A DNA stretch of 56,174 nucleotides from Staphylococcus epidermidis (GCA_945870555.1 CAMBSI010000003.1:1-56174); one strand, 5' to 3'; counted from the first letter of the stretch, positions 13,077-56,174 are shown. A program made the numbers and translations. The notes: generated from the sequence alone by a model not told the origin.

Positions 13077-13499
13077 ATGTTTGATTTAAAAAAAATAAAA
13101 ACGATTATTCCTCATCGTGAACCATTCATTTTAATTGATCGGGTCATGCAAAATGAACCATTAATACATAGTGTTGCTGAAAAAGATATTCGTCTAACTG
13201 AATTTTGGGTTCCAGGCCATTTTCCTAATAATCCAGTTTTTCCGGGCGTTCTCATCGTTGAAGCTTTTGCTCAAACTGGGGCAATTTGTATTTTAACTGC
13301 GCCACAATACATTGGAAAAATCGGTTATTTCTCTGCAATCCAAGAAGTTAAATTTAAACGCAAAGTGGTTCCCGGAGACACGCTTCGCCTTGAAGTCAAA
13401 TTAACCAGTTCAAAAGTTGGTTTTTTCTTTTTTGATGGTGAAGCATTTGTCGATGAACAATTGGTATGTGTTGCTAAATTCTCAGTTGCTGTAGGTTAG
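13077..13499 (+). CDS. fabZ: 3-hydroxyacyl-ACP dehydratase
   Basis: PHREPF, GHFP, PGVLIVEAFAQ. Confidence 0.96.
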   Translation: MFDLKKIKTIIPHREPFILIDRVMQNEPLIHSVAEKDIRLTEFWVPGHFPNNPVFPGVLIVEAFAQTGAICILTAPQYIGKIGYFSAIQEVKFKRKVVPGDTLRLEVKLTSSKVGFFFFDGEAFVDEQLVCVAKFSVAVG

Positions 13500-22116: not shown

Positions 22117-22138
22117 ATCTACTAAATATCTACTACTT
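22117..22138 (+). promoter_or_regulatory. Site A of the 11-bp-period CTACTA direct repeat; overlaps the -35 position of an extended -10 promoter (TGgTATATT, 22151-22159)
   Basis: ATCTACTAAAT|ATCTACTACTT; near-identical elements at 37922-37954 and 54786-54807. Confidence 0.7.
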
Positions 22139-22174
22139 TTTCAAATTTTATGGTATATTTTAACAAGTTTAATT

Positions 22175-23506
22175 ATGGCAATTAATGATTTAGCCATCCG
22201 CTTTACGGATGAACAATATGCAACCAAACAAGATGTCGCAAAGACCCTTGGAACCGCGGTTGTCGATGCATTGTGGGGAACCATTCTTCAGTATCGTGCT
22301 ACGTTTGCGCGGATCTTACCGCTACAAGCAATGGATAAGCAACCCTTGCAAATCGTATTGACCCCTAGTTTGTTAGAGAAAGTCATGGCCTTTGATCGAA
22401 AAATGTCAAAAGCCGTCAGTCTCTTCAATTATCATCAAATTCAAAACAAAATTGCTTCCCCGTTTTATCCATTATTGTTACCAATTCTTGCAAGTGTAGG
22501 TAAGCAATATGGCGCGTCGACCGCCGAACGAAATTTAATGTATATTCTCGAAGGTAAAGCGGTCGAAAGAAAGGCCGAATTATCATCCGTTAATCAGTAT
22601 TTTCGTGGGATTGATTTGATTGCGGCAAGACGCCAAACCAAACTCGACGAGGACTTAATGGGTGACTTGCTTATGTTACTCAATCAAACACAAGAGTTAA
22701 CGATGTTTTATCGAGAAAAAGAGTTAACCAACCGGCCCAAAAGTTTAGTGGCCAGGGTTTACGAAGCTGCACCGTATCCTTTAATTGAACCGATGATGAA
22801 GACGTTATTGCAAACCGTCAACCAAATGACCTTGTCACCATTGGTGATTGCCACGATAGCTTTATATTATCTTGATTACATCAAACCATTTGAAACCTTT
22901 AATGATGAAATGAGTTTTCTATTATTTAAAAACATCTTAATCCATAGTGATTATGAGGCCGTTGCTTGCTACCTGAATATCGAACAATTTATGGACAATG
23001 AAGCTTACGAAAAGTGTATGTTAGAGGTTCAACGCACACGCGACATCACTTATTTATTGGACTTCATGTTGCCTTTCATGTTAACGAGCGTGGAACAAAT
23101 TCTTGATCGATTGGTTGGTTTACAAAAACAGACCTTAATTGCAGAACAAAAACAACCTCAACCTACCCTTGCTTCGTTTCCAGTCCCGGCTGCATTACCA
23201 AAAGAAACCACGGCGTTTTCTGCAAGTGAGTCCACCATTGGTGAGGTAGAATCGAATCGCTTGCAACAACATTTGATTGAAACCCACCCGAGTATGAAAA
23301 AAGGTGAAGCGTTCTTCTATGCCCGGCACCATACGGTTGGAAAATATTACACGCTTTCACAATACAAGCAACAACTGTCCTGTGCTTATGAAACGGCACG
23401 AACTTCAATGGAACATTTGGTTCAATTAGGTTATTATCGTAAAGAGAAGTATAAAAATAAATACGTTTATACACCTGTTGACTTAAAAGGAGCAACCCAT
23501 GATTAA
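22175..23506 (+). CDS. Fic-like protein with degenerate catalytic motif and C-terminal winged-helix-like domain
   Basis: IKPFETFNDEMSFLL occupies the position of the Fic signature HPFxDGNGRxxR, preceded by the typical helical 'P.LVIATIALYYLDY' segment; C-terminus YTLSQYKQQLSCAYETARTSMEHLVQLGYYRKEKYKNKYVY has an HTH-plus-wing pattern. Confidence 0.6.
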   Translation: MAINDLAIRFTDEQYATKQDVAKTLGTAVVDALWGTILQYRATFARILPLQAMDKQPLQIVLTPSLLEKVMAFDRKMSKAVSLFNYHQIQNKIASPFYPLLLPILASVGKQYGASTAERNLMYILEGKAVERKAELSSVNQYFRGIDLIAARRQTKLDEDLMGDLLMLLNQTQELTMFYREKELTNRPKSLVARVYEAAPYPLIEPMMKTLLQTVNQMTLSPLVIATIALYYLDYIKPFETFNDEMSFLLFKNILIHSDYEAVACYLNIEQFMDNEAYEKCMLEVQRTRDITYLLDFMLPFMLTSVEQILDRLVGLQKQTLIAEQKQPQPTLASFPVPAALPKETTAFSASESTIGEVESNRLQQHLIETHPSMKKGEAFFYARHHTVGKYYTLSQYKQQLSCAYETARTSMEHLVQLGYYRKEKYKNKYVYTPVDLKGATHD

Positions 23507-36556: not shown

Positions 36557-37927
36557 ATGAAAACATTTACTTTTGATCAATTAGTCACCCATTTAACAAG
36601 TACAGGCTTTGTCTACCAAGGATCCGAAATTTACGGTGGATTATCAAACACGTGGGATTATGGTCCGTTGGGTGTCGAACTTATCAATAATTTACGTCGC
36701 TCATGGTGGAAAAAATTTGTCCAAGAGAATCCCATGAATGTAGGCGTTGACTCTGCAATTTTAATGAACCCTAAAGTATGGGAAGCAACAGGACATGTCG
36801 CCACCTTTAACGATCCGTTGGTTGATTGTAAAAATTGTAAATCACGCCATCGCGCGGATCAATTAATCACCCAGGCAAAACCAGACATTGACATCAGTAA
36901 TATACCAAGTTTAGAACTAGGAAAAGTCTTGAAAGAACAAAAGATAGCTTGTACAAAATGCGGTAGTCACGACTTTACAGATATTCGTCAGTTCAACATG
37001 ATGTTTAAAACTCATATTGGCGTCATTGAGGATGCAAAAACGGTTGTTTATTTACGTCCAGAAACTGCCCAAGGTGTATTTGTGAACTTTAAAAATATTC
37101 AACGAACGACTCGAAAAAAGATTCCTTTTGGCGTTGCCAGTGTTGGAAAAGCATTCCGAAATGAAATCACACCAGGAAACTTTACATTTAGAACCCGTGA
37201 GTTTTCCCAAATGGAATTAGAATTCTTTTGCAAACCTGGAACCGAAGCATCTTGGTATAAATTTTGGCAAGATGCCTGTATGCAATACTTAGCTTCTCTC
37301 GGGATTCAAAAACAAAACTTAAGAATTCGTGAACATAGTCCAGAAGAGTTAGCCTTTTATTCAAAGGGAACGTCGGATATTGAATATGCATTTCCTTTTG
37401 GTTGGGGTGAAGTATGGGGCATTGCAAGTCGAACCGATTATGACTTAAAACAACACATGCAATTTAGTAAAGATGATTTAACCTACTTGGATCCAGAAAC
37501 CAATGAAAAATATATCCCATACGTCATCGAACCTTCACTTGGTTTAGACCGTCTAGCGTTGATGGTTTTAAGTGATGCTTATCAAGAAGAGGTTTTAGAA
37601 AAAGATACGCGAATTGTTTTGAAATTACATCCAGCGATTGCCCCCTATAAAATTGCCATCCTCCCTTTGAGCAAACAACTCAATGATAAAGCTCAAGAAG
37701 TCATGACCATATTATCCAAGCATTTTATGGTGACATATGATGAGTCAGCAAGCATCGGAAAAAGATACCGTCGTCAAGACATGATCGGCACCCCATATTG
37801 CGTGACGATTGATTTTGAAACACAAACCGACCAAAGTGTAACGATTCGTGAACGGGATTCCATGAAACAACTTCGGATGCCAATCGACGACCTGATTAGA
37901 TATTTTAATGTGAAGTTATATTATTAG
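36557..37927 (+). CDS. glyQS: Glycine--tRNA ligase (homodimeric alpha2 type)
   Basis: EIYGG, WDYGPLG, LRPETAQG, GKAFRNEI, FRTREF.QME, IEPSLG, IGKRYRRQD; start moved to ATG 36557. Confidence 0.97.
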   Translation: MKTFTFDQLVTHLTSTGFVYQGSEIYGGLSNTWDYGPLGVELINNLRRSWWKKFVQENPMNVGVDSAILMNPKVWEATGHVATFNDPLVDCKNCKSRHRADQLITQAKPDIDISNIPSLELGKVLKEQKIACTKCGSHDFTDIRQFNMMFKTHIGVIEDAKTVVYLRPETAQGVFVNFKNIQRTTRKKIPFGVASVGKAFRNEITPGNFTFRTREFSQMELEFFCKPGTEASWYKFWQDACMQYLASLGIQKQNLRIREHSPEELAFYSKGTSDIEYAFPFGWGEVWGIASRTDYDLKQHMQFSKDDLTYLDPETNEKYIPYVIEPSLGLDRLALMVLSDAYQEEVLEKDTRIVLKLHPAIAPYKIAILPLSKQLNDKAQEVMTILSKHFMVTYDESASIGKRYRRQDMIGTPYCVTIDFETQTDQSVTIRERDSMKQLRMPIDDLIRYFNVKLYY

Positions 37928-37954
37928 TCGTAAATTAGTAGTTATATAGTAGTT
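37922..37954 (-). promoter_or_regulatory. Site C of the 11-bp-period CTACTA direct repeat (three units), upstream of dnaG
   Basis: Minus strand AACTACTATAT|AACTACTAATT|TACGACTAATA. Confidence 0.7.
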
Positions 37955-45794: not shown

Positions 45795-46013
45795 ATGGCA
45801 GATATTTGGCAAACCTTATTGTATCTTGTGATTGGTTTAATTGGCGGTCTCGTCGGTGGATTTTTCTTATCACGTTGGTATTTTAAACGTGAATTAACAA
45901 AGAATCCTCCTATCAATGAAAAAATGATTCGGGCCATGTTCATGCAAATGGGCCGCAAACCAAATGAAGCGCAAGTTCGCGCAGTCATCAATAGCATGAA
46001 TGCTCAAAAATAA
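45795..46013 (+). CDS. yneF: YneF-family small membrane protein
   Basis: GGFFLSR..NPPINEKMIRAMFMQMGRKP. Confidence 0.93.
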   Translation: MADIWQTLLYLVIGLIGGLVGGFFLSRWYFKRELTKNPPINEKMIRAMFMQMGRKPNEAQVRAVINSMNAQK

Positions 46014-54656: not shown

Positions 54657-54684
54657 ACTTCGTATAATGTCTATTATGTTAACC
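54657..54684 (+). other. dif site (Xer chromosome dimer resolution site)
   Basis: ACTTCGTATAA-TGTCTA-TTATGTTAACC fits the 11-6-11 dif architecture (compare E. coli GGTGCGCATAA-TGTATA-TTATGTTAAAT and Firmicute ACTTCCTAKAA-TATATA-TTATGTAAACT); intergenic, at the gene-orientation switch, about 1.3 kb from xerD. Confidence 0.9.
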
Positions 54685-54743: not shown

Positions 54744-54768
54744 AAAAAGGTTGATCCTAAAATCAACC
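54744..54768 (-). terminator. Intrinsic terminator downstream of deoB
   Basis: Minus strand GGTTGAT-TTTAGG-ATCAACC-TTTTT. Confidence 0.75.
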
Positions 54769-54770
54769 AG

Positions 54771-54779
54771 TTATCCACA
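54771..54779 (+). promoter_or_regulatory. Perfect DnaA-box sequence
   Basis: TTATCCACA; a single copy, function unproven. Confidence 0.4.
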
Positions 54780-54785
54780 TCCATT

Positions 54786-54807
54786 ATCTACTAAATAACT
54801 ACTAATT
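54786..54807 (+). promoter_or_regulatory. Site B of the 11-bp-period CTACTA direct repeat, overlapping the deoB stop
   Basis: ATCTACTAAAT|AACTACTAATT; 54788-54809 matches the reverse complement of 37931-37952 at 21 of 22 positions. Confidence 0.7.
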
Positions 54808-55989: not shown

Positions 55990-56008
55990 CTTTTTAACCC
56001 CTTATAGT

Positions 56009-56174
56009 TTACTTTCTTTTGGAGTATAAATCAAAAGCAGAGAGGATTCTTTTTTCAGAAACGTGCGTATAAATCTGGGTAGTAGATAAATGGGTATGGC
56101 CCAACATGTCTTGAACAGCCCTTAGCGACGCCCCTTGTTCAAGCAAGTGAGTAGCAAAAGAATGGCGTAAAGTA
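56009..56174 (-). CDS. xerD: XerC/XerD-family tyrosine recombinase, C-terminal fragment (runs off the window); absent from the ORF track
   Basis: Manual translation [54 protein letters not shown] with the [10 protein letters not shown] and catalytic Tyr motifs; the xerD-deoB order matches Bacillus ripX-drm. XerD versus XerC rests on synteny only. Confidence 0.88.

Follow-up and report, generated by a model that had tools for sequence, protein, structure and literature searches.

CTACTAA repeat arrays beside dif and a candidate pseudo-Fic binder in an uncultured order of Bacilli

Arrays of a CTACTAA direct repeat with an 11-bp period recur beside dif and in front of one gene, P0001, in genomes of an uncultured order of Bacilli. 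On balance, we think it probable that these arrays are the cognate sites of the P0001 family, in which a catalytically dead Fic fold is joined to a winged helix-turn-helix (wHTH), and that a complex assembled on the XerD side of dif modulates events at dif. The arrays themselves, with their period, geometry and conservation, their restriction to the terminus and their co-occurrence with P0001, are observed; the identity of the binder, the sign of its regulation and its function at dif are what we infer here, and the protein fold is taken from a predicted structure. Few lineages have a terminus-specific binding system that is understood in detail; enterobacteria and vibrios have MatP, Bacillus has RTP and XerD/XDS. 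How do most bacteria mark and handle dif? The arrays offer a conserved and directly testable element with which to address this question. If P0001 does bind them, the widespread and unexplained Fic+wHTH architecture would acquire a sequence-specific DNA role; to our knowledge, no specific operator has been described for its known members. In addition, the DnaA box hard-wired beside dif hints at cross-talk between termination and initiation. A limited full-text literature search found no description of a dif-linked DnaA box with a repeat array, nor of a sequence-specific pseudo-Fic DNA binder. We would place the element among the terminus-specific DNA-binding systems, with a real chance that it is something newer.

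The repeat and its sites

The window, the whole 56,174-nt stretch analyzed here, is contig C3 of assembly G000 (924 kb in 59 contigs, 82% complete, 39.6% G+C). The initial annotation had pointed out three tandem CTACTA sites; on re-reading, A, B and C all lie where it placed them (Table 1), and a scan of the whole 924-kb assembly finds the exact pattern CTACTA-N5-CTACTA in these three places only. With up to one mismatch allowed, the window holds four matches against 0.03 expected (100 shuffles, none of which reached four), which bears out the supposed enrichment over background. Of the window's nine CTACTA hexamers, six fall inside the three sites, and the same scan of the 924-kb assembly gave no convincing matches with one or two mismatches elsewhere. 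Sites B and C are slightly less alike than the 21 of 22 positions first given: comparing B with units one and two of C gives 20 matches in 22.

Table 1. Features of the window (coordinates from its first nucleotide)
Feature	Coordinates	Strand	Description
Site A	22117..22138	+	Two CTACTA units, 11-bp period: ATCTACTAAAT then ATCTACTACTT
Probable extended -10 of the P0001 operon	22151..22159	+	TGgTATATT, read from the sequence
P0001	22175..23506	+	443 aa; predicted catalytically dead Fic fold and C-terminal winged helix
P0002	23499..23825	+	108 aa; single-pass membrane protein, overlaps the end of P0001, co-operonic
Site C	37920..37954	-	Three-unit array (units at 37922-37954) filling the 55-nt gap between the glyQS stop codon and dnaG-rpoD
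dif	54657..54684	+	XerC arm ACTTCGTATAA, spacer TGTCTA, XerD arm TTATGTTAACC
deoB intrinsic terminator hairpin	54749..54768	-	Just beyond box and array
DnaA box	54771..54779	+	Perfect match to consensus TTATCCACA; 87 bp after dif, 8 bp upstream of site B
Site B	54786..54807	+	Two units, 102 bp beyond the TTATGTTAA (XerD) arm of dif

The 11-bp period is specific: in about 1.35 Mb from the window's genus, exact TACTA pairs occur 11 times at period 11 and 0-3 times at each other period from 6 to 25. When sites from relatives are aligned, the unit reads approximately (C/T)TACTAA followed by four A/T-rich bases, and the arrays comprise two to five such units at the 11-bp period. A relaxed pattern, ACTAW-N6-ACTAW, was dropped because its reversed control outscored the motif; three-unit and one-mismatch patterns were used in its place.

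Two weak two-unit matches elsewhere in the window's assembly may reflect chance or minor sites. One, TTACTAA-N4-TTACTAT, is intergenic, upstream of a sodA-like gene (C11:5752); the other, TAACTAA-N4-TTACTAT, is intergenic before a LemA-like gene (C2:10803).

P0001, its putative operator and its membrane-protein neighbor

By sequence, P0001 is only weakly related to known families, with Pfam matches to Fic (PF02661; E = 0.016) and a BlaI-type wHTH (E = 0.002). Its AlphaFold2 model (pLDDT 89.5) has the Fic/Fido (PF02661) fold: the top 40 Foldseek matches in the PDB are all Fic proteins, the best being the Fic+wHTH structures Dde_2494 (4RGL), Coxiella Fic2 (8CIL) and SoFic (3ZCN/3EQX), with E-values of 1e-8 to 1e-6 at 12-14% sequence identity. 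The model matches these proteins in fold and architecture, but its catalytic motif is replaced. The Fic signature HxFx(D/E)GNGRxxR is absent from P0001, which reads KPFETFNDEMSF, and the corresponding stretch is KPF(E/D)x(Y/F)N(E/D)E in all 48 aligned homologues. No homologue has a histidine in the catalytic column (K in 40, Q in two, R in two, E in two, A in one) and GNGR is missing from all; P0001 is thus a pseudo-enzyme. The other end of the protein has been kept: across the same 48 homologues, the recognition helix YETARTSM(D/E)xL and the wing KNK(F/Y)VYTP of the BlaI/MecI-like wHTH are invariant, in parallel with a DNA motif that is unchanged across the order. The candidate binder has no receiver domain.

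The family comprises about 500 clusters at 50% identity, all from MAGs of uncultured "Bacilli bacterium"; of 151 genomes of the order, whose members have small genomes of about 1-2 Mb, 137 carry it. Its setting is conserved as well. In 13 of 14 distant loci the P0001 homologue comes after lepA, either next to it or no more than three genes on, and in 12 of 14 distant genomes it is itself followed by an ORF of 69-109 aa equivalent to P0002. The latter begins with a transmembrane helix, shares a conserved (E)LDRxLVP-like motif with its equivalents and matched no Pfam or NCBIfam family.

Site A has the lepA stop codon on one side and the P0001 ORF on the other. The initial annotation had it cover the -35 position, and this holds: the second unit occupies the -35 place of a conserved extended -10, and GGTATATT or GGTATAGT is kept at a constant distance from the array across the window's genus. 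The extended -10 was not among the elements listed by a consensus promoter scan. Conservation upstream of orthologues was also borne out: two to four motif units stand just upstream of every P0001 homologue examined, in more than 20 genomes of families f1, f3, f4, f5 and f7, and in one independent MAG. In most lineages the units read TTAGTAG in the direction of the gene, but the window's genus and g31 have them the other way round; the promoter architecture is therefore not uniform.

The P0001 start codon is about 8-9 nt after the inferred transcript start (22160-22177), with no Shine-Dalgarno sequence, and the P0001 mRNA may be near-leaderless.

Do the arrays follow the protein? Three-unit arrays gave 62 matches in P0001-bearing genera and families, none in seven good genomes that lack P0001 and nine for the reversed control, a co-occurrence confounded by phylogeny in a sample made up of MAGs of one uncultured order. 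The box and array at dif described below are likewise absent from all five P0001-lacking genomes read (G031, G032, G037, G038 and G039). The last of these represents an independent loss of P0001 within family f3, and has neither box nor array at its dif. Probably only three or four independent gains or losses lie behind the overall pattern. The adjacent pseudo-Fic/wHTH protein had been put forward as the autoregulating binder; the array before every homologue examined, the matching phyletic pattern and the Fic+wHTH fold favor that candidate, and P0001 as a putative autoregulating binder of the arrays is supported by strong comparative evidence.

A complete genome of 1.1 Mb (G140) keeps only the dif-adjacent array at the one-mismatch level. 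Its P0001 homologue (C1:676407-677960) consists of two overlapping pieces in different frames and may be frameshifted.

A composite element on the XerD side of dif

The arms of the window's dif were assigned by analogy with the dif sites of E. coli and B. subtilis. The pattern is essentially single-copy in 32 of 41 relatives, two genomes having a second match with one mismatch, and the reversed pattern matched once in the 41 genomes. On the 278-kb contig of G008, long ORFs number 76 plus and 9 minus to the left of dif and 30 plus and 71 minus to its right, and dif is near the maximum of the cumulative GC skew; the flip in gene strand together with the skew maximum identifies the dif locus as the replication terminus. 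Site B had been reported about 100 bp from dif, in agreement with the coordinates in Table 1. Site B is not in a promoter. The genes on either side of it, rsfS and deoB, are convergent, and it overlaps the stop codon of deoB.

Of 34 genomes from P0001-bearing lineages, 32 have an array at +95 to +125 from dif, in constant orientation away from the XerD arm; they represent more than 15 genera in families f1, f3 and f7. The supposed link to the terminus is thereby supported. The gene to the right of dif varies meanwhile, being deoB or one of several unrelated ORFs of 181-227 aa. The DnaA box is kept too: 23 of 25 P0001-lineage genomes have TTWTCCACA on the same strand between +76 and +97 from dif, where about 0.003 would be expected by chance per 60 bp. 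Most genera place it at +85 to +88 and three at +76 or +97; it was seen in further genera as well. The two genomes without it near dif are G026 and G030. The gap between box and array is 7-8, 19-20 or 29-33 bp, steps of about 11 bp which imply that box and array keep their helical phase, and the stretch of about 85 bp from dif to the box is not conserved in sequence. Elements that keep their distance, phase and orientation while the sequence between them varies freely point to a stereospecific nucleoprotein complex. This geometry was established in families f1, f3 and f7; the dif pattern had no match in f4 and f5. In one f5 genome, four arrays of mixed orientation are packed into 220 bp (G028:C4:93225-93445), with no recognizable dif nearby.

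How might such an element work? In the model we favor, the wHTH domains of P0001 would bind successive units head to tail, on one face of the DNA. At site A, an array over the -35 element of the gene's own promoter would provide autoregulation; at site C (dnaG-rpoD) and at a further site, D, before xerD(-deoB), P0001 would probably act as a repressor or a roadblock. At dif, the order is dif, about 85 bp, the DnaA box, 8 bp (or 8 plus multiples of 11) and an array running away from the XerD arm; on this element P0001, possibly with DnaA, would build a nucleoprotein complex. This complex would modulate XerCD/FtsK dimer resolution or the handling of the terminus, and P0001 would in addition tune xerD and nearby replication and transcription genes. 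A replacement of FtsK by P0001 was considered and rejected: FtsK/SpoIIIE is present in 40 of 41 genomes, P0001-bearing and P0001-lacking alike. Its presence leaves no gap in the Xer system to be filled, which counts against the favored model. So do the reversed orientation of the operators in the window's genus and g31, the XerC-side position of the known plasmid accessory sites, the missing DnaA boxes of G026 and G030, and the dif-adjacent array that G140 keeps despite a possibly broken P0001 gene.

The closest parallels to a complex of this kind are plasmid resolution sites. A recent preprint describes accessory proteins that act with XerCD (bioRxiv 10.64898/2026.02.23.706985). As at cer (ArgR/PepA) and psi (ArcA/PepA), a putative accessory-protein site lies about 100 bp from the XerCD core at a constrained distance, with the array at +95 to +125 and the box at +76 to +97. 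ArcA at psi is itself a direct-repeat wHTH binder, and the known plasmid accessory sites are on the XerC side. The dif arrays differ in several respects: they accompany a chromosomal dif, lie on the side of the TTATGTTAA (XerD) arm and include a DnaA box; the proteins are unrelated, and FtsK is present, whereas resolution at cer and psi is FtsK-independent and topologically filtered.

A more ambitious version would make the dead Fic protein P0001, its membrane partner P0002 and the dif/box/array element parts of a terminus machine of a kind not known before, which couples termination to initiation or division. The complex on the XerD side would then recruit or sense DnaA, so that completion of replication and dimer resolution are coupled to initiation control or division, and topoisomerase IV or XerD might be recruited through the old target-binding surface of the Fic domain. 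We regard this version as tentative and rather doubtful; if true, it would amount to a new mode of Xer or terminus control in an uncultured order of Bacilli.

Sites across the terminus and alternative readings

How far do the arrays extend from dif? In a complete single-contig genome of 1.3 Mb (G164), all seven matches with up to one mismatch lie at 1,047,693-1,094,243, a stretch of 46.5 kb that includes dif and the P0001 gene, the reversed-pattern control giving 43 matches genome-wide. By a hand calculation, the chance that six further matches would fall so close to the first is about 1e-7. On contig C1 of G071, which is at least 681 kb long, a 78-kb span takes in 17 of the 21 matches; in G099, G144, G041, G111 and G134 most matches are within a few tens of kb of dif, with a few one-mismatch outliers. 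On contig C1 of G008 (278 kb) the real sites lie within 35 kb: A at 99,049 (+), C at 114,804 (-), B at 131,565 (+) and D at 133,673 (+); a fifth match, at 13,351, has two mismatches and was judged noise. G009 carries the same four sites. The idea of a new regulon raised by the initial annotation must therefore be narrowed: a regulon dispersed over the genome is rejected, given that in the window's own assembly and in complete or near-complete relatives the few sites lie within tens of kb of dif, but conserved sites, that of P0001's own promoter included, do exist.

Confinement to the terminus is what one would expect of a MatP/matS-like organizer or tether, a serious rival to the favored model, although we consider it unlikely. 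P0001 would mark the terminus and P0002 would anchor or insulate it, for example by membrane or septum positioning or by exclusion or unloading of SMC; the promoter sites would be secondary, with no direct role in Xer catalysis. Sites lie within about 10-60 kb on either side of dif in every well-assembled genome, many of them at gene 3' ends or between co-directional genes rather than at promoters, and a single-pass membrane protein with a shared motif is conserved directly after P0001. MatP and matS are a precedent for terminus-specific sites (PMC4177673; PMC11564523). The arrays share with matS sequence-specific sites found only in the dif region, as seen in G164, G071, G008, G099 and G144. 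MatP, an RHH/coiled-coil protein, binds a 13-bp palindrome, matS, of which about 20 copies are spread over hundreds of kb. By contrast, there are only four to ten direct-repeat arrays per genome, in tens of kb, one of them at a putative autoregulatory site, and the modeled fold of P0001 is Fic+wHTH, with no homology to MatP. Furthermore, the fixed distance to dif and the DnaA box and the phasing argue for a local stereospecific complex and not for domain-wide marking, and the partnership of P0001 with P0002 is drawn from their operon neighborhood.

Promoter-proximal sites suggest something more conventional, an ordinary small regulon of another direct-repeat binder of the OmpR/PhoB type, with proximity to dif incidental and P0001 only a target. 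The layout does resemble that of OmpR/PhoB operators, such as the PhoB boxes, the WalR site TGTWAH-N5-TGTWAH and the SaeR site GTTAA-N6-GTTAA: at least two hexamers are repeated head to tail with an 11-bp period, hexamer-N5-hexamer being the classic form, and some copies overlap a -35 element. Sites A, C and D are all promoter-proximal. Site C, next to a glyQS-like gene for a class-II tRNA synthetase, keeps its position and orientation in the glyQS/dnaG gap of G000, G008, G009, G019 and G022; the dnaG-rpoD site singled out by the initial annotation is thus present in its place, but recurs only within the window's own family. Site D has three units and in G008 abuts the start codon of a gene for a 294-aa XerC/D-type recombinase, which heads the xerD-deoB operon in the window's genus and has no visible Shine-Dalgarno sequence. 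The window ends within the gene beyond deoB (55990-56174), so that site D would fall just past its right end. In G019 (C78:28050-32055) the order is dxs-dinB-xerD-deoB, and a CTACTAA array stands immediately before the start codon of dxs; G024 has a syntenic string and G033 a similar arrangement. Against another regulator, the phyletic pattern of the motif follows P0001, whose own site is the sole promoter site to be universally conserved, and the dif-adjacent site keeps its distance and orientation while the neighboring gene changes and no promoter is there. The arrays also differ from OmpR/PhoB operators in having up to five units and in their terminus restriction, and the candidate binder is not a response regulator. 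On these grounds we judge an unrelated regulator improbable. Judging from the sites compared, the universal members of the set appear to be the array at P0001's own promoter and the array next to dif.

Terminus clustering and own-gene control together also recall the B. subtilis RTP/Ter system, in which a winged-helix protein binds terminus-clustered sites and rtp is autoregulated through one of them (TerI). Could the arrays be polar fork traps, stopping forks in one direction and focusing termination at dif? Sites do cluster at the terminus, one is at the P0001 promoter, some 70-75% of the arrays read away from dif, and in G026, G030 and G036, the last of which also has a DnaA box, inverted arrays flank dif on both sides within 100-300 bp. 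However, orientation is incoherent. Six genera (G019, G024, G099, G111, G134 and G144) share a site at -8.5 to -8.7 kb, at the 3' end of head-on plsY (about -9.6 kb in G023), and it points the opposite way. So does site A, both in g31 and in the genus of the window, and so do single sites in G026, G033 and G036. Whichever the polarity, neither fork could then reach some interval near dif. Rather, the bias tracks local transcription and strand composition, even at plsY: in most arrays TTAGTAG is on the coding/leading strand of the local unit. The uniformly opposed orientation of RTP/Ter or Tus/Ter sites is thus not found around dif, and a strict fork trap is rejected on this account. P0001 has neither the RTP nor the Tus fold, and its sites are direct-repeat arrays and not A/B dimer sites. 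Fork arrest of this type is very improbable.

An element acting at the RNA level, in which an RNA-binding protein would recognize UUAGUAG repeats in untranslated regions or the repeats would act on transcript ends, would fit the TTAGTAG reading on the local coding strand of most arrays (head-on plsY included), but is extremely improbable: site A is upstream of the promoter's -10, its orientation is inverted in two genera, arrays upstream of -35 in distant genomes would stay untranscribed from that promoter, and the exact 11-bp period fits the helical repeat of DNA. Rfam found no RNA family in the window.

One more likeness concerns the DnaA box. Iteron plasmid origins combine a DnaA box with direct repeats of 17-22 bp and an autoregulated winged-helix Rep protein; in the arrays, too, a DnaA box adjoins phased direct repeats, and the promoter of the candidate binder carries the repeat. 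Unlike in iterons, the unit is 11 bp, P0001 has neither Rep homology nor the Rep fold, and the locus, 100 bp from dif, is by skew and gene strand the chromosome terminus and not an origin. The layout of the arrays lacks at least one defining feature of each of the systems compared: OmpR/PhoB operators, cer/psi, MatP/matS, RTP/Ter and iteron origins.

Other sites recur as well. An array occupies the gap after parC in G019 and G022; the genus of the window has no array at parC or plsY, where the corresponding gaps are occupied or closed. In the window, a small ORF for a membrane protein of about 72 aa (MADIWQTLLYLVIG...; 45796-46013) fills the efp-plsY gap, the position that holds a CTACTAA array in other genera of the window's family.
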